Shown here: positions 2,266-9,759 of the stretch, one piece after another
Layout of the letters: every line of letters starts with the position of its first letter
How positions within the stretch are numbered: the first letter of the stretch is position 1
IMG/VR virus record: IMGVR_UViG_2657245124_000005
DNA from: a virus
Taxonomy: Duplodnaviria > Heunggongvirae > Uroviricota > Caudoviricetes
DNA: 10,772 nt
Strand: one strand, 5' to 3'
The notes under the pieces: model-generated
What the model was told of the DNA's origin: nothing
Databases searched by the model: none
What the model saw: only the letters and a program-made list of their open reading frames with translations
Position numbers and translations under genes: made by a program

Positions 2266-2421
2266 TTACTCCTCAGGTTCGTAAGCTGTGAAGACAGCGA
2301 CCTCCGTCTGGCCGGTTCGGATTCGTACCTCGCAGAGGTCTTTCCTCGTTACCAGTGCCGTCACTATGACGGTTAAACAGATGACGATCAGGGCGATTAA
2401 CATCGCCTTTTGCTGCTTCAT
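2266..2421 (-). CDS. hokD: Hok-family type I toxin (HokD/RelF-like small membrane protein)
   Basis: ATG at 2421..2419 with AAGGAG 9 nt upstream; 51 aa MKQQKAMLIALIVICLTVIVTALVTRKDLCEVRIRTGQTEVAVFTAYEPEE: single N-terminal transmembrane helix plus conserved C-terminal Cys pattern of Hok/Gef proteins. The track ORF adds 19 in-frame upstream codons from an ATG at 2478. Confidence 0.8.
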   Translation of the reverse strand: MKQQKAMLIALIVICLTVIVTALVTRKDLCEVRIRTGQTEVAVFTAYEPEE

Positions 2422-2779
2422 AGCCTGCTTCTCCTTGCCTTTCGGCACGTAAGAGGCTAACCTACATGTGTCTAGCATGAAATTGGCCTCAGATTAATGT
2501 TAAGCGTCTTGCAGGACGCGTAATGTTAACTGGGGCTTTTCTCTATCTGCCTTTGGTGTTCATGCCTGAGGCAGATAGCCTCAAGCACCCGCAGCAATTC
2601 TACTTAACTCACGTCACCTCGCCAATATAAAATCAATCAGAAAGGCGATCCGTAAGAACAACAGCAAGACAATAAATTGCCATTACAGCCGCAATAGCTA
2701 GCGCACATTTGAGAACCAGCACGACAACCTCCTGTATTGGACGTACACCAGTCCTGATAAATATGAGGCTGTCTCATCA

Positions 2780-2807: not shown

Positions 2808-3036
2808 TTCTGTGATTTTGTTCTGTAGAAATGGAACACAACAACCAGTCTCCACCAGCACTTCTTTAAATACGCCAAGTCCGACGCAAGCTAACCTTCT
2901 AGTCCGCTTTGAGCGAACTGTGGAAGCTCGCAAATGTTGTTACATCTGATGAAGGCATTACTCAAAGGAGGGGATAGTAGTCAACGTGGAGCAGGCCATG
3001 TTAGTATTTTTATACAATTCGACTAAGGGAAAAACA

Positions 3037-3906
3037 ATGAGGCTTTACATAATAGGAAATGGATTTGACATGCGTCATGGCTTACCAACAGGATACAAGC
3101 ACTTTAAGTCGTATGTAGAAAAAAATGACCAAGATCTATATGACGCGATAGAAGAATACATTCCTGCTGGGGACGAGTGGAATGAGTTAGAAAATGCTTT
3201 AGGTGAAATTGATTATGAGCTTATCCTTCAAAACAGTGAGATATTTTTGGCTTCATACAATACCGATGATTGGAGCGATGCTTATCATCACGATTACCAA
3301 TATGAAGTAAATAAAATCACACAAATGCTGTCAGCTCGTTTGAAGGAGCAATTCGCTGATTGGGTTAAAGGGATTAACATAGCCGATGCTTACAATCCTA
3401 AGCAATACATCCCGCCCATACCAAGAGAAAGCATCTATTTTTCATTTAATTATACAAATACCTTGCAGCAGATCTATGCCGTTCCAGACGAGCAAATCAT
3501 ACATATTCACGGCAATTGTAGTTACGATGACGATCTCATACTTGGTCATAGTTTTAGGGTGGAAAAGTCACTAAATCCATATATAGGACCGGATCAAGAT
3601 ACAAGAATAGCAGAGGCATACGACAGAATAAACGAATACTTCGGTAATACATTCAAGCCCAGCGAAGACATAATTAAAGAAGAAAACGTTTTTTTCTCAT
3701 CGCTTAAAAATGTGGACGAGGTCATCGTTTTAGGCCACTCGCTCGCCGAAGTTGACGGTGAATACTTTACTGAAATAAATAAAAGCATCCAAGAAAATGC
3801 TCGATGGATAGTTGCTTTATATAGAGGTGAGAAAAAATCAGGCAGTTTAGAAGATTATGGTATCAGAGGCTCAAATATTTCTTACGTACAGTATGAAGAT
3901 ATCTGA
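3037..3906 (+). CDS. AbiH-family abortive-infection protein homolog
   Basis: N-terminus MRLYIIGNGFDMRHGLPTGYKHFKSY matches the hallmark IIGNGFD..HGL..Y motif of the AbiH family (Pfam PF14253, from memory). ATG at 3037 is preceded by AAGGGA; in-frame alternative starts at GTG 2986 (preceded by AAGGAGGGG) and ATG 2998. Codon composition is AT-rich, unlike the flanking prophage genes. Confidence 0.75.
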   Translation: MRLYIIGNGFDMRHGLPTGYKHFKSYVEKNDQDLYDAIEEYIPAGDEWNELENALGEIDYELILQNSEIFLASYNTDDWSDAYHHDYQYEVNKITQMLSARLKEQFADWVKGINIADAYNPKQYIPPIPRESIYFSFNYTNTLQQIYAVPDEQIIHIHGNCSYDDDLILGHSFRVEKSLNPYIGPDQDTRIAEAYDRINEYFGNTFKPSEDIIKEENVFFSSLKNVDEVIVLGHSLAEVDGEYFTEINKSIQENARWIVALYRGEKKSGSLEDYGIRGSNISYVQYEDI

Positions 3907-3995
3907 ATGAGACTTCATATTATAACTATAATTATGTAAAAAAGGCTGGTATTTTATACCTTGAGGAAAATAGATAAGAGGAATGAGGTTTGGTT

Positions 3996-5387
3996 ATGAT
4001 GAATTATACTGATGAGTCAACTTTTCTTGAAAAGTACAAACCGTTTAGGAAGTTTTGGACAATTTTATCACCTCATTATGTATCTTTAATGCATGCACTT
4101 GCCAAAATGATAAGGGGAGGGAATCCAATTCAAGAACTACCTTCCAATGATGAGGATTTTCTTGCAGAGTATGAAACCTGTCTCAAAAATTGGAAAGACT
4201 CACAAAAAATCATATCTTTTGAGATTATTATTCGGCTGAGAGATATAAAAAGATTGGAAACTGAAAAAAAAGAGCACCATCGAAACAAGGATAAAGAAAA
4301 TAAAGAAAAGTGTATTGATGAAATAAGTTTAAAAAAATTTGAAATTCTTATTCTTCGCCGTTGTATTGACTCAATAATTTGGAGCATTCTTGATGAAGAA
4401 CACTCTAGTTTGCGGCGTTTACCTATTAATGCAAGCAATGACAATCTATCAGAAGATAACATAATTGATTCTATGGTCGCAGCCGATCTTATCAACCAGG
4501 ACAAACACTCCGTAGCGATTGTCTCTGACATGAGCACATTTGTTCATGTGGGAGATTTAGTCACCTTTAATCTACTGGATGGCTTCCAGCTCGTGGAAGT
4601 TAAAACAGGTGAAAAGAATAATGAGCTTTATGAAGCTGCTGAATTTTCTGTTATCTCAGAATGTCCGCACTTTGAAGAAAACTTCATTAACAATATGCCT
4701 GATAATGATGTTAAGCAATTTAATCGCATAAAAAGGCAAATCATTCGTGGCATGAATGTTCTGGAGGCGATTAATACTGGCGAGGGCTTTGACAACTTTC
4801 ATCAGTCTAAAGTTAAAATCAATGAGATAGATCATCCGTCTGAATTTTATACCCACCGCTTAGTTAAAATGTGGGAGATTATTCGCGGAGGAAAAAATTG
4901 GGCAATTGATACTATTGATGAATGTTTGTTCTTAGGTATGTACCGTGATTCTGAAATGGGCTTTGTTGCCTTCAATGGATGGATGGATAGTCTCGGTATA
5001 AAAAGCCCTGTTGTGAATATAAATGATTCATTCTTTGACCCTTTGTCTCGACCATTTATGAGTTTGCATCTGCCAACTGAAATGCTCTCCGATCTCATGT
5101 CGGGACAAATAATCATCGTCATGTGTTTTGACAATGAACTTTTTTTTCACCGTGCTAACAAAACGTACCCGGGTTTATATCTCCTTAGCGATGCAGCAAG
5201 AACAAAGCAGCCATTAGAAAATATTCTTCGTGTTGGTTCACAAGGGATAGCTTCTTACGTAGATGGGAATACCAGCTTTTTAGGTAATGGTATTGAATCC
5301 CGTATCCTTTTCGATCAGCAACGACCCGACAACATTATTGAGTGGAGCTATGCTAGAAGCGATCTCAAAAAGCAACATGAAGCATAA
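3996..5387 (+). CDS. unknown 463-aa protein co-oriented with AbiH-like gene; putative PD-(D/E)xK-like nuclease motif
   Basis: ATG at 3996 with GAGG 7 nt upstream (track start 3990 is TTG). Long uninterrupted AT-rich ORF, 89 bp after the AbiH-like stop. Contains HVGD(189)LV...LVE(203)VK(205) by track numbering (nt 4554..4604), the spacing of a PD-(D/E)xK core, and a Lys/Glu-rich stretch (RDIKRLETEKKEHHRNKDKENKEK). No Walker A motif seen. Confidence 0.7.
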   Translation: MMNYTDESTFLEKYKPFRKFWTILSPHYVSLMHALAKMIRGGNPIQELPSNDEDFLAEYETCLKNWKDSQKIISFEIIIRLRDIKRLETEKKEHHRNKDKENKEKCIDEISLKKFEILILRRCIDSIIWSILDEEHSSLRRLPINASNDNLSEDNIIDSMVAADLINQDKHSVAIVSDMSTFVHVGDLVTFNLLDGFQLVEVKTGEKNNELYEAAEFSVISECPHFEENFINNMPDNDVKQFNRIKRQIIRGMNVLEAINTGEGFDNFHQSKVKINEIDHPSEFYTHRLVKMWEIIRGGKNWAIDTIDECLFLGMYRDSEMGFVAFNGWMDSLGIKSPVVNINDSFFDPLSRPFMSLHLPTEMLSDLMSGQIIIVMCFDNELFFHRANKTYPGLYLLSDAARTKQPLENILRVGSQGIASYVDGNTSFLGNGIESRILFDQQRPDNIIEWSYARSDLKKQHEA

Positions 5388-5649: not shown

Positions 5650-6072
5650 TCACTTCAATAAATACCGAACATCCCCCTGATAAAACGACAATATGCGCTG
5701 CATAACTTCGCTTTTACGACACTCAGTACAAATCATATTATGACGCCTGTCGTAACGACGTATTTCTCCATCAGGTAATGACCAGATAAGGTCCGGATCA
5801 ACCGCAGATGGTTTCTTCAGCTTTGCCCTTGAGAGCTTTTTACGGGCATTTTGCCAGTCCTTACGCGCCTGTTCAGACGGGAATAACCCGTAACCAGAGT
5901 TGTATACATCGCCACTGGCAACCAGCTCTCTGGCCAGAACGCTCATCAGATATCTTGTTGCCCCAGTTTTAGTTTCCAGTTGTCGTAACGTCTCGCGCCC
6001 ACTCTGGCGTACGAGTTCAACAACCTGCCCTTTAATTTTTTCCCGCTCTTCTTGTGTAAAAACTTTTGCCAC
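5650..6072 (-). CDS. hypothetical prophage protein (140 aa) downstream of replication initiator
   Basis: GTG start at 6072 with AGGAGG 4 nt upstream; basic protein with a CTEC motif. Occupies the place where lambdoid phages usually carry P/DnaC-like loader genes but is too small and has no Walker A motif. Confidence 0.55.
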   Translation of the reverse strand: MAKVFTQEEREKIKGQVVELVRQSGRETLRQLETKTGATRYLMSVLARELVASGDVYNSGYGLFPSEQARKDWQNARKKLSRAKLKKPSAVDPDLIWSLPDGEIRRYDRRHNMICTECRKSEVMQRILSFYQGDVRYLLK

Positions 6073-6112: not shown

Positions 6113-7183
6113 TTACCCCCTGAAGCCCGGCGGAATTTCGTTATCCGGTTCAGAAATATGATTCACACAACGCTGGTTGTTCGTGCCGCTTACCGGGAGC
6201 AACCAGGGGTTCTCAAAATTCCGGTCCGGTCCAAAAAACGTCGTCGCTCGCTGAACAAATTCCGTTCCCGTTTTCCCGGTAGCCGCCAAGTATCTTGCGT
6301 AACGCCTCACGCCATCCAGCATGGCCTCTGGTGGCACCCCCTCGCGTAATCTGGCCTTCCAGGCACTGAAAGCGGATTTCTTCGGGTTTGCTCCGGCACG
6401 CAACGGGTACTCCCGCCAGACCTGTTCGAACACATCCGGATAATCCACTCGTCCCACAGACTGCCCGGTGTTTTCCGGGACTACCCGATCGGCTTCCCGC
6501 TGAATGGCGGAATCGGCTTCGGGCTGCTGCAGTTGGTGTGATTGCTCCGGCCTTGCGGTCATCACCTGCTGCACAGCGCCCGAATCGGCTTTCAGCGCAT
6601 ACGCTGAATCGGCTTCCGGTGTCGTGCCTGCTGGCTGACCAAGATTGACGGTCTGAACATCCCCTGCCTGGTTCGTGGCGTTTTTTACGCCATGGACCAT
6701 AGTGTTTTGATCTTCTTGATCTGTATCTTTATCTGTATCTTTATCTGTCGTGACTCGTCGTGACATGTGCGTGACATTTCGTGACGCGCCGTGACAATCG
6801 CCATTTTGTTCCCGCTTTCTTTCCCTCTCTCGCTGCGCCCTCTTGCGCTCTGCAGGAGATTTTGCGGTTTGCGAAATATTGCCGTTGTCCTCTTTAAGCA
6901 CCTGGCGTTTTTCCCATCCAGTGATTAAATCACCATCAAGTACCCGCCCCTGCATCGTCTGCAAAATTGAATCAATCACCTCTTCTGTCACGTCGAGCGC
7001 ACTTGCCAAATCTTCTGTCGTGACATCAATGTGACCTCGCGTGACATTTCGTGACGCGCTCACCAAGAGGTGGATATACACTGCCATCACTGTTGCAATT
7101 GGCTGCCCTGACACCCTGGCAATTGTTCGCCACTTAGGGTCATTTGGCATGTCATGCCATAATCTGAGCCAGGCGTTAGCCAT
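6113..7183 (-). CDS. phage replication initiation protein (O-like / replisome organizer)
   Basis: ATG at 7183 with GAGGTG upstream (track GTG at 7189 also possible). N-terminus WLRLWHDMPNDPKWRTIARVSGQPIATVMAVYIHLL resembles the phage replisome-organizer N-terminal HTH domain; the gene contains two iteron clusters, as lambda O contains ori. Confidence 0.7.
   Translation of the reverse strand: MANAWLRLWHDMPNDPKWRTIARVSGQPIATVMAVYIHLLVSASRNVTRGHIDVTTEDLASALDVTEEVIDSILQTMQGRVLDGDLITGWEKRQVLKEDNGNISQTAKSPAERKRAQRERERKREQNGDCHGASRNVTHMSRRVTTDKDTDKDTDQEDQNTMVHGVKNATNQAGDVQTVNLGQPAGTTPEADSAYALKADSGAVQQVMTARPEQSHQLQQPEADSAIQREADRVVPENTGQSVGRVDYPDVFEQVWREYPLRAGANPKKSAFSAWKARLREGVPPEAMLDGVRRYARYLAATGKTGTEFVQRATTFFGPDRNFENPWLLPVSGTNNQRCVNHISEPDNEIPPGFRG
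6712..6747. repeat. short tandem repeat (12-bp unit TCTGTATCTTTA, about 2.5 copies) inside the replication gene
   Basis: gatctgtatctttatctgtatctttatctgt; encodes TDKDTDKDTD in the O-like protein. Confidence 0.6.
6750..6795. repeat. iteron cluster 1: five GTGAC motifs phased every 10-11 bp
   Basis: GTGAC at 6750, 6760, 6771, 6781, 6791. Shares the 19-mer GTGACATTTCGTGACGCGC (6771..6789) with cluster 2. Confidence 0.55.
7020..7059. repeat. iteron cluster 2: four GTGAC motifs phased every 10-11 bp
   Basis: GTGAC at 7020, 7031, 7041, 7051; exact 19-mer GTGACATTTCGTGACGCGC at 7041..7059. TCTTCTGTC also occurs twice (6981..6989, 7011..7019) with an inverted GTCAC at 6987..6991. Confidence 0.55.
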
Positions 7184-7254
7184 ACTCACCTCTTTTGATA
7201 CCGAATCTTTTTACTCACAAATTGCCGGAAGTGATCCGGTATGAATATTGCGAG

Positions 7255-7680
7255 TCAATGCACAGCCACAATATTTCCTGCAGGGCCACCACGATTCATC
7301 TGGTTGAAACCAGCGATCGCCACTGCGACAAAATCATCAGCGTCTCTCACCAGTCGTTCCCGCGTCTCCACTAGTTCCCGAAAATAGGCTGAGCTATGAC
7401 TGCGCATTCGGGCCACCAGCAGAGGTGGCATTGCTTTTTCGATAGCTGGTAACAACGCCTGAATTTTTTTAACCGCATCAGGGGTGTCTTTCTCCACCCA
7501 GCGGAAAATTTTCTGAGTATTGCGAGCCAGGGCTTCCGGATGGCTGTCGTCATACAGTTCCGGGAACGTCATTCCCAGCTCGAAATACGCTTTGGTAATT
7601 TTCGCAGCCGGTACTTTTTCGCCGTCCGGATGCGCCCAGGCATTCATCGCCATGCGGATGTGTTCATGCTTGATTTTCAT
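7255..7680 (-). CDS. ydaT: YdaT-family protein (CII-like regulator of Rac/CP-933P-type immunity regions)
   Basis: ATG at 7680..7678 overlaps the upstream gene's stop (ATGA). 141 aa starting MKIKHEHI, which I recall as the YdaT N-terminus; it sits directly after a Cro-like gene, as in ydaS-ydaT. Confidence 0.6.
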   Translation of the reverse strand: MKIKHEHIRMAMNAWAHPDGEKVPAAKITKAYFELGMTFPELYDDSHPEALARNTQKIFRWVEKDTPDAVKKIQALLPAIEKAMPPLLVARMRSHSSAYFRELVETRERLVRDADDFVAVAIAGFNQMNRGGPAGNIVAVH

Positions 7681-7931
7681 GAATCAACTCCCATCAGCTT
7701 TTTCGTAGTAGTTTTATTCCTGCCAATAGTTAAAATTGCATCGGCAGAAAATAATCCGTTTGATGCAAGAGCGATTTTTTCAGCGTAATTTGTTTCGCCG
7801 GTATATTCTGTGCGAGGCAATTTTCCGTTATCCATCCATTTATAGATTGCTCTTTGGCTGACACCACAAACGTCGGCCACAACAGCAACGCGAACAGTTT
7901 TGATTACATCTTCAAGTGTTTTCTGGTTCAT
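7677..7931 (-). CDS. ydaS: Cro/YdaS-like HTH regulator
   Basis: ATG at 7931..7929 with GAGGGTGA upstream; 84 aa MNQKTLEDVIKTVRVAVVADVCGVSQRAIYKWMDNGKLP has a helix-turn-helix signature. Divergent from the repressor gene at 8011. The track's 108-aa version starts within the operator region and is unlikely. Confidence 0.65.
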   Translation of the reverse strand: MNQKTLEDVIKTVRVAVVADVCGVSQRAIYKWMDNGKLPRTEYTGETNYAEKIALASNGLFSADAILTIGRNKTTTKKLMGVDS

Positions 7932-8010
7932 ATCACCCTCACAATGTGAACTTTGAGTACATGCTATAACAGAACTGACAGTACATTCAAGAGCGAATAT
8001 CATTGAACTT
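7932..8010. promoter_or_regulatory. divergent promoter/operator region between Cro-like and repressor genes
   Basis: 79-bp gap between divergent starts; direct repeats of AGTACAT at 7956..7962 and 7980..7986, TGAACTT at 7947..7953 and 8004..8010, and TATAAC/GAATAT -10-like hexamers. Confidence 0.5.
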
Positions 8011-8430
8011 ATGGTTCATGAAGATAAAGCGCGTAAAGAGTTCGCCAGTAGGCTTGCGCTAGCCTGTGAAAACGCTGGTTATGAACAACATGGAAGGCAG
8101 GCAGAAATTGCCCGTCGAATGAAATTAACACCAAAAGCGGTTAGCAAATGGTTTAATGGCGAAACAATTCCTCGCCGGGAGAAATTAAGGGAATTAGCAA
8201 CACTAATAGGAACAACACCAACCTATCTTTTGGGAGAGGATACAGAAGAAAGTGGACAGGTACGTTTCTATCAGGAGTTAAATCCAAGACAAAAAATCAT
8301 CATTGACCTTCTGGACGAGCTCCCTGACAGTGAGACAGATGAACTTTTAAAAACTCTTGAAGAGAAAAAACAGAAGTACAATGCAATTTACGAAGAGTTA
8401 GCACGAAAGAAAAAACAAAAAGCCTCTTAA
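8011..8430 (+). CDS. DicA/RacR-type prophage repressor (XRE-family HTH, C-terminal acidic/coiled region)
   Basis: 139 aa; HTH_3-like segment QAEIARRMKLTPKAVSKWFNGETIPRREKLRELATLIGTTPTYLL. Same architecture as DicA but the sequence is not the K-12 DicA as I recall it. Confidence 0.75.
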   Translation: MVHEDKARKEFASRLALACENAGYEQHGRQAEIARRMKLTPKAVSKWFNGETIPRREKLRELATLIGTTPTYLLGEDTEESGQVRFYQELNPRQKIIIDLLDELPDSETDELLKTLEEKKQKYNAIYEELARKKKQKAS

Positions 8431-9701: not shown

Positions 9702-9759
9702 TTTCTGGTGACGTTTGGCGGTATCAGTTTTACTCCGTGACTGCTCTGCCGCCGTTTTT
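9702..9759 (+). ncRNA. dicF: DicF small regulatory RNA
   Basis: TTTCTGGTGACGTTTGGCGGTATCAGTTTTACTCCGTGACTGCTCTGCCGCCGTTTTT matches the DicF sequence as I remember it. It ends in a GGCGG/CCGCC stem (9717..9721 with 9749..9753) plus T5 (9755..9759) and lies just upstream of dicB, as in Qin. Confidence 0.85.

Follow-up and report, generated by a model that had tools for sequence, protein, structure and literature searches.

The replication origin of phage lambda lies inside the gene for its initiator, O, where transcription passes through several initiator-binding repeats and then through an AT-rich tract (PMC7466680). The number of these repeats (iterons) varies among lambda and the Stx phages, with Stx variants having six, and the variation adds amino acids to O (PMC7466680). 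In phage SPP1 the initiator G38P binds direct repeats within its own gene, next to an AT-rich DNA-unwinding element (DUE), at oriL (PMC6316719). Here we describe a comparable element in a 10,772-nucleotide stretch of viral DNA (IMG/VR record IMGVR_UViG_2657245124_000005; the whole stretch is referred to as the window). Its gene for a 'phage replisome organizer' contains two clusters, A and B, of the sequence GTCACG as well as an AT-rich tract next to cluster B. Our sequence comparisons indicate, with a probability that we place at roughly 0.8, that the two clusters and the tract constitute a vegetative (theta-type) replication origin located inside its own initiator gene.

The preliminary description of this sequence had likened the element to lambda ori. 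The likeness holds for phased repeats inside an initiator gene but is one of analogy, as the protein is best placed in the Phage_rep_org_N/DnaD-like lineage and not with lambda O. As in lambda, iteron number varies between relatives (four or six in cluster A), an origin-specific N-terminal part is joined at a mosaic junction to an exchangeable, partner-specific C-terminal part, the gene comes after cro and cII in the early right operon, and cluster B together with the AT-rich tract encodes a disordered linker, as lambda ori does in O. Unlike lambda, in which the units are 19 bp long with internal dyad symmetry, the cores are 6-7 bp long and spaced one helical turn apart. Moreover, there are two clusters, one of which lies within the coding sequence of the DNA-binding domain, and the window contains no P-type loader gene.

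The window gene shares with SPP1 the name 'replisome organizer' and the same broad type of N-terminal domain, the domain comparison having been made with phiEf11. In SPP1 a second origin, oriR, lies about 13 kb from oriL, whereas the clusters described here are 230-270 bp apart in one gene; a second distant origin of this kind was looked for in the related phage Tritos and rejected. SPP1 also encodes the loader gp39 and the helicase gp40, neither of which the prophage has next to the gene. Iterons are missing from the corresponding position in the SPP1-like Bacillus phage 055SW001.

The same layout is found in temperate phages of Firmicutes (phiEf11, phi11, SM1, phiRg519T2, BC-1, phiS13, Listeria LMC and 80 IMG/VR loci), in which a Phage_rep_org_N domain and a basic helix are followed by three to eight short iterons about 10-12 bp apart and then by an ACAGATA(A/T)AGA purine/AT tract; in these genes the iterons lead into ACAGATATAGATAAAGAA. 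The Firmicutes genes differ in having only the linker cluster, equivalent to cluster B, often with palindromic pairs (GTCACGTGAC). The origins of the lactococcal P335-type phages Tuc2009 and TP901-1 reportedly map to repeats inside their rep genes. Neither DnaD nor DnaT is known to bind origins sequence-specifically, and their genes are not known to carry iterons. The origins of the staphylococcal pathogenicity islands (SaPIs) have short hexamer-type iterons in two sets and an AT-rich region, and are bound by the island's own initiator. Unlike the window element, the SaPI ori lies beside the rep gene and not inside it, and Rep is a helicase-type initiator.

Origins inside the initiator gene are already known in the replisome-organizer lineage, but this element was previously unannotated. 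No sequence record annotates it as an origin, and it was not described in the literature that we searched (GTCACG iterons, replisome-organizer origins, Tuc2009/TP901-1 origins and Stx-phage 'Eru' replication regions), which did not cover the classic lactococcal papers. The less expected parts are a family-wide correspondence between a protein helix and the iterons, and the embedding of cluster A, in three frames, in the coding sequence of the DNA-binding domain.

Two phased GTCACG clusters in the initiator gene

The initiator gene matches phrog_3729 'replication initiation protein' (E 5e-258) and carries the NCBI name given above. The ATG at 7183 is the likely start, although the open reading frame (ORF) lister chose GTG at 7189, and the stop codon occupies 6113-6115. 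The product starts MANAWLRLWHDMPNDPKW, and its homologs begin MAN(A/S)WLRLW.

The repeat unit is 10-11 bp and has a 6-bp asymmetric core, GTCACG, on the coding strand. On the plus strand, GTGAC starts at 6750, 6760, 6771, 6781 and 6791 in cluster B (spacings of 10, 11, 10 and 10 bp) and at 7020, 7031, 7041 and 7051 in cluster A (11, 10 and 10 bp). There are thus nine direct copies in two clusters, 6750-6795 and 7020-7055, plus one inverted copy that is found at the same place in most GTCAC-class homologs. These are the nine motifs with 10-11-bp phasing that had been claimed previously, and their arrangement is not expected by chance: chains of at least four copies were absent from 500 dinucleotide-preserving shuffles of the window, and the two clusters are the only phased 5-mer chains in it (at least three copies at 10-11-bp spacing). 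The 10.8-kb window as a whole contains 28 GTGAC compared with 16.4 ± 3.9 expected, a count of at least 28 being reached in 0 of 200 shuffles. The 19-mer GTGACATTTCGTGACGCGC, earlier noticed as common to both clusters, is exact at 6771-6789 and 7041-7059, with 0 expected. Tandem Repeats Finder (TRF) reported a tandem repeat at 6714-6748, TCTTTATCTGTA (12-bp x 2.9), and, at 6747-6796, a period of 10 bp. Phage Tritos has a 98.6% identical gene, and its complete genome (46 kb) contains no GTCAC clusters other than these two.

According to a structure model, helix 3 of the N-terminal domain ends within the residues encoded by cluster A (43-55, ASRNVTRGHIDVT), which also include a loop of low confidence. 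Cluster B encodes a disordered linker (residues 130-145). A pyrimidine-rich tract and an AT-rich tandem repeat were both thought to separate the clusters; the former is there (6800-6860), whereas the latter flanks the 6750-6795 cluster on its far side.

Constraint on the repeats and the adjoining tract

It is conceivable that the periodicity is a by-product of an RNVT/RRVT peptide repeat or of replication slippage and has no function at the DNA level. SRNVT is present twice in the peptide, and copy number shifts in slippage-like 21-bp steps. However, the cores start at codon phases 3, 1, 2 and 1 in cluster A (read S-R, V-T, G-H and V-T) and 2, 3, 1, 3 and 1 in cluster B, such that the core is translated in every frame, as S-R, V-T, G-H and C-H. 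Because all three codon phases are used, the peptide repeat cannot account for the periodicity. We also compared synonymous sites among 22 homologs from different species with 59-74% protein identity. The core codons V47 GTC, T48 ACG, G50 GGT, H51 CAC, V54 GTC and T55 ACG were found in 22/22 homologs, S44 TCA in 21/22 and A43 GCG in 20/22, and the V65 codon in the inverted copy was GTG in 20/20. In contrast, 44 other conserved-residue codons were near saturation, with a mean top-codon fraction of 0.57 and a codon entropy of 1.36 bits. The preliminary description had proposed weighing iteron conservation against synonymous-site variation in this way, and the fixed core codons agree with its origin reading.

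Insertions and frameshifts tell the same story. Cluster A has four or six copies in E. coli NCTC86 and E. albertii, the difference being a 21-bp insertion that in NCTC86 corresponds to exactly two extra units. In cluster B of NCTC86 a compensated frameshift alters the peptide while all of the DNA cores are kept. In addition, the inverted copies are conserved, and other lineages carry other cores at the same two places. The frozen synonymous sites, together with the insertion and the compensated frameshift, show that the repeats are selected as double-stranded DNA sites and not as codons. A protein-repeat origin of the periodicity is ruled out by the reading-frame and synonymous-site analysis, and we give next to no weight to the idea that the repeats arose from the peptide or from slippage without a role as DNA.

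To compare the anatomy of the clusters we used a scan with one genome per species, which gave 52 loci; an initial scan, of viral contigs, had yielded nothing but identical E. coli copies and hence no added diversity. About 25 of the 52 loci have four GTCAC at gene nucleotides 128-159 and three to five at about 386-430. The genera of this GTCAC class include Shigella, Serratia, Rahnella, Pseudomonas, Bordetella, Acidovorax, Chromobacterium, Aquitalea and Gilvimarinus, and E. albertii also belongs to it. The repeats might have been absent or unphased in homologs, but these roughly 25 species keep them phased and in place. In about 28 loci cluster B is kept, with three to five copies. In more distant homologs the same two places hold phased repeats of another core (CGAACGC in 11 loci and GTAACG in five), and both clusters always share one core, which changes in both together across lineages. 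One locus (L121) combines a GAACG-type globular domain, 84% identical to that of L133, with a K..Q helix, a GTCAC cluster B and a decayed cluster A. In the Firmicutes replisome-organizer genes examined there was no iteron cluster inside the N-terminal domain (N-domain). As these phages have the linker cluster and the tract without an N-domain cluster, cluster B plus the AT/purine tract is the ancestral and universal core, to which the proteobacterial branch alone added cluster A as an accessory.

Another host or phage DNA-binding protein could in principle recognize the repeats, for instance in partition, in packaging or as a defence/exclusion target, and genes for helix-turn-helix proteins (cro-like, YdaT/cII-like and DUF977) are nearby. 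However, Pseudomonas phage P7869 and Aeromonas phage pAEv1818 have other neighbors, yet their GTCACG clusters are identical in place and number. The same core is also found in Firmicutes gut phages, where it is tied to a residue in the initiator's own helix (see below), and host factors are unlikely to be common to both phyla with switching specificities. We therefore consider recognition by another protein very improbable.

The AT-rich tract has a GC content of 30%, the minimum of the gene, and contains a 12-bp x 3 tandem repeat (6714-6749). An equivalent tract was present in 37/37 loci that have cluster B, with an AT content of 66% versus 45% for the gene and 70% versus 56% purine on the coding strand. 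In these loci the last cluster B iteron is directly followed by (A/C)(C/T)AGATAAAGATA..., and the downstream cluster always leads into a ACAGATAAAGA-type AT- and purine-rich tract. Since the tract is read in different frames depending on the locus (TDKD, PQIRED or LDKIRE), it too is a DNA-level feature.

These findings bear on the possibility that the clusters are initiator-binding sites for autoregulation, copy control or handcuffing, and that the real unwinding site is elsewhere in the phage. Cluster A is inside the domain-coding part, far from any AT-rich tract, and its absence from Firmicutes relatives and from L121 makes it dispensable for the family, such that it could be regulatory; the iterons of many plasmids serve both regulatory and origin roles. 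On the other hand, cluster B is always directly followed by the conserved AT/purine tract at the GC minimum of the gene, which is the canonical iteron-plus-DUE layout, the complete Tritos genome has no further cluster of the core, and the relatives SPP1 and lambda initiate at such in-gene sites. A regulatory function without origin function is thus unlikely, although cluster A may act as an enhancer or copy-control site of the origin that we propose.

An inverted repeat with a 13-bp stem follows the AT-rich tract. It may be an origin-flanking palindrome, its membership in the element being uncertain, and its position recalls the palindrome reported to adjoin the AT-rich region of lambda ori. 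It also resembles a terminator on the antisense strand. Comparable hairpins occur in about a quarter of the related loci, and a palindrome at this position was rejected as a universal feature (perfect stem of at least 7 bp in about 9/40 loci; mean best stem 5.65 versus 4.7 background). DnaA boxes were not enriched near the element, the only perfect TTWTNCACA matches in the window being at 6053 and 8493, outside it. Dam sites were not enriched there either; the AT-rich tract has two GATC, and GATC is depleted overall. Promoter and terminator counts were at the shuffle level, with the antisense hairpin at 6669-6699 as the sole notable match. A run of five to seven C residues, often as a CCCCC...GGGGG hairpin, is common 30-50 nucleotides past cluster B in proteobacterial loci, after the AT/purine tract (L003, L090, L092, L095, L097, L100, L125 and others), and is absent from the window.

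Of 5426 complete E. coli genomes, 2036, O157:H7 among them, contain the origin segment 6700-7060 at an identity of at least 80%. A single genome may hold as many as six copies, and in these genomes the segment is annotated only as coding sequence. The E. coli alleles of the gene range from 302 to 374 residues and differ mainly by indels in two regions: the iteron/DKDT repeats and the (P)EADSA region, where GAATCGGCTT occurs three times in 6507-6619 and encodes (P)EADSA peptide repeats in the disordered linker. One allele, P0019 (302 residues; about window 6480-6780), has an in-frame loss of cluster B iterons 2-5, the AT-rich tract and the hairpin, and is predicted to be an origin-dead prophage copy. 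At gene nucleotides of about 300-700 in the Serratia/Pantoea loci L127 and L135, an unrelated C-terminal part (YVYYVATTDG...GISRNPWAR), which looks GIY-YIG/T5orf172-like by eye, is joined to the same N-domain, and CTACGTAG-type repeats replace the usual iterons and AT tract.

A candidate specificity helix and exchangeable modules

To identify residues that might be associated with the iteron sequence, alignment columns were ranked by mutual information with iteron class. Outside the iteron-encoded loop, the column of residue 117, in the basic helix AERKRAQRERE, ranked highest, and residues 114 and 120 came next. The structure model has a helix at 110-127, and the pyrimidine-rich tract of the plus strand is the coding sequence for this Arg/Lys/Glu-rich helix (residues 108-127). 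In Proteobacteria, residue 117 is Q with GTCAC (27/28), W with CGAACGC (8/9) and Y or F with GTAACG (5/5). Among 55 non-redundant Firmicutes-type loci, the equivalent residue is Q (20/21) or E (2/2) with GTCAC, H (13/14) or Y (9/14) with GTAAC, W with GTAGA (2/2), and S with GTCAA or GCAAC. In both phyla, K stands four positions before 117 in the Q/GTCACG combination, and V in the H/Y/GTAACG combination. The 3' half of the core, ACG, is common to the proteobacterial core classes and GCAACG. Further classes were seen in the Firmicutes-type loci L164, L167, L176, L198 and L143, with W accompanying GTAGA/TCTAC and S accompanying GTCAA or GCAACG. The loop peptide encoded by cluster A is not supported as the specificity determinant, as the loop sequence is missing from phiEf11 and L121, which nevertheless have the iteron class.

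These correspondences raise the possibility, which we put forward tentatively and at somewhat less than even odds, of a family-wide code for origin specificity. A short basic helix past the winged-helix domain would read NNN-ACG iterons in both phyla, and two helix positions would set the variable half of the site (K..Q/E for GTC-ACG, V..H/Y/F for GTA-ACG and A..W for CGA-ACG). Helix, iterons and unwinding tract would then form one swappable cassette, with a second set of iterons in Proteobacteria placed, in all three frames, in the sequence that codes for the initiator's own DNA-binding domain.

Our model predicts that the N-terminal part of the initiator, a winged helix like the N-terminal domain (NTD) of DnaD plus the basic helix, would bind one core per helical turn, with K113 and Q117 reading the variable half of the core. 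Initiator copies would align on one face of the DNA to form an O-some-like nucleoprotein complex, and the resulting strain would melt the adjoining tract. Transcription from the early rightward promoter would cross the gene and the origin and may assist, as in lambda. The C-terminal domain, the last 25 residues of which are like host DnaT, would bring host DnaB/DnaC or the restart primosome.

The N-terminal part (about 130 residues) is the only one that always accompanies the iterons, whereas neighboring genes and C-terminal domains vary even between relatives whose GTCACG clusters are identical. The window has a DUF977 neighbor and no loader, NCTC86 has a DnaT domain and a lambda-P-like protein, P7869 has a primase-helicase, and pAEv1818 has a DnaT domain and a DnaC-like loader; genes of the P, DnaC or primase-helicase type thus occur in relatives. 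A profile built from 30 N-domains was aligned by hhalign with the Phage_rep_org_N domain of phiEf11 from end to end (probability 94.6%, E 7e-8, 111 columns), at an identity of about 27% between the window N-domain and the Firmicutes genes. As in true Phage_rep_org_N members, the basic helix, the iterons and the purine/AT tract are in the linker after the N-domain. The initiator gave no match to Phage_rep_O, the lambda O family, even at E values up to 10; Foldseek against PDB found nothing significant (E > 1), and neither did a sequence-profile search of PDB with the N-domain yield a match. On present evidence we place the initiator, as a divergent member, in the replisome-organizer (Phage_rep_org_N/DnaD-like) lineage.

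The C-terminal domain matches phrog_1701 'DnaD-like helicase loader' and related families. Its tail (residues 332-356; 6116-6190, minus strand), NHISEPDNEIPPGFRG, is a near match to the C-terminus of E. coli DnaT: SEPDNEIPPGFRG matches SEPDNHIPPGFRG of DnaT (PDB 6aep, 2ru8 and 9zbt), and the NF002770 DnaT model aligns at 156-179/179. The DNA-binding domain of DnaT (PF17948) is missing from the window protein; the NCTC86 and Aeromonas relatives do have it. The tail match, together with the lack of a loader gene after the initiator gene, suggests that the tail mimics DnaT and captures the host helicase-loading machinery. No helicase-loader or helicase gene adjoins the initiator gene, which is followed by DUF977 and then by AbiH and an ORF of no known family, and the complete Tritos genome contains no other replication gene. 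As there is no such gene nearby or in Tritos, and the tail is DnaT-like, recruitment of the host helicase by the C-terminal domain is the probable route.

E. coli matches cover query positions 3-596 or 614-1077 of the gene, that is, its N-half or its C-half, and the alignment with NCTC86 breaks inside the AT-rich tract. With breakpoints at this position, the ori and the ori-binding module are exchanged as a unit against different recruitment modules, as in lambdoid O genes. In 055SW001 (L146, 868-1638), a Phage_rep_org_N-type N-domain is joined to a C-terminal part that is 41.6% identical to lambda O residues, and the linker has no iterons; this hybrid protein indicates that the two initiator families share exchangeable modules.

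The codon phases, the frozen sites, the concerted change of cores, the AT-rich tract and the association with the N-terminal part all support the earlier proposal of an origin inside the initiator gene. Several observations weigh against it, or against parts of it. Some homologs (L112, L114, L126, L128 and L130) have few or no iterons, and the element is therefore not obligatory for the protein family. The distance between the clusters ranges from 219 to 319 bp, which implies no fixed looping geometry and rules out a fixed helical register between them. The matches of the initiator to PF09681 (12.8 bits versus a cut-off of 23.3, E 0.12) and TIGR01714 (15.4 versus 49.8, E 0.016) run end to end but are below cut-off. 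Our literature searches found no experiment on binding, unwinding or autonomous replication for this element or its close relatives. The helix-iteron correspondence has exceptions (Y with GTCAC in L110, L181 and L209, and H with GAACG in L131). Moreover, the helix coding sequence is only 30-60 nucleotides from cluster B, and linkage alone could therefore co-transfer helix and iterons; the covariation is confounded by this physical linkage and by shared ancestry. Cluster A, which lies across the domain, is concordant too; this favors selection but is not proof.

Genomic setting and implications

The gene order around the initiator is typical of a lambdoid early region (Table 1). An E. coli chromosome matches the window at 100% identity, and the initiator gene is 98-99% identical to that of several isolated phages, including Tritos and Evi, indicating that the window is part of a Qin/Rac-like lambdoid prophage. 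DUF977 is followed on the opposite strand by an AbiH abortive-infection gene (2986-3906, plus strand; E 8e-69) and an adjacent 465-residue ORF without a family match (3990-5387, plus strand). The two are downstream of the replication module, Tritos has a different insert at this place, and they are probably a defence moron. The window also contains a sok antitoxin RNA of a hok/sok module (2416-2590, minus strand) and the small RNA DicF (9703-9754, plus strand), both above the Rfam gathering threshold.

Table 1. Coordinates of the initiator gene, the proposed origin elements and neighboring genes in the window
Feature	Position	Strand	Remarks
Initiator gene, 'phage replisome organizer', 356 residues	6113-7183	-	ORF list, translation, family matches
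Globular winged-helix-like N-terminal domain, residues 1-85	6929-7183	-	
Iteron cluster A	7019-7056	-	Four GTCAC(G) cores on coding strand, 10/10/11-bp spacing
Single inverted core copy	6987-6991	+	GTGAC on coding strand, 33 bp downstream of cluster A
Basic helix, residues 108-127 (SPAERKRAQRERERKRE...), candidate iteron-specificity helix with K113 and Q117	6803-6862	-	
Iteron cluster B	6749-6796	-	Five GTCACG cores, 10/10/11/10-bp spacing
AT-rich tract, purine-rich on coding strand (ACAGATAAAGATACAGATAAAGATACAGATCAAGAAGATCAAAAC), putative DNA-unwinding element	6700-6749	.	
Mosaic (recombination) junction, ori/ori-binding module versus C-terminal module	6708-6726	.	
Inverted repeat with 13-bp stem, right after AT-rich tract	6669-6699	.	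dG -10.9 kcal/mol, z -4.8, 0/200 shuffles fold as well
C-terminal helical domain and tail, residues 247-356, presumed host-replisome recruitment module	6116-6445	-	
DUF977 gene	5650-6072	-	Downstream of initiator
YdaT/cII-like gene	7255-7680	-	
cro-like gene	7677-8003	-	
cI-like repressor	8011-8430	+	

The region is a clear case of dual coding, in which a protein sequence and a cis-element together constrain synonymous sites, and this is relevant to annotation, to codon-based selection tests and to recoding projects. A defined origin with a predicted cognate binding module would be a target for studies of prophage induction and replication, with a bearing on cross-activation and incompatibility between co-resident prophages and on how toxin or defence genes carried by prophages are amplified. 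Where a genome has several copies of the segment (up to six), co-resident prophages would share one initiator-origin specificity, and cross-activation or competition between them is possible. Initiator specificity could be predicted cheaply from the helix-iteron correspondence, which spans two phyla. If the proposed code is true, origin specificity and the cross-talk of co-resident prophages would be predictable from sequence and could be reprogrammed by two substitutions.

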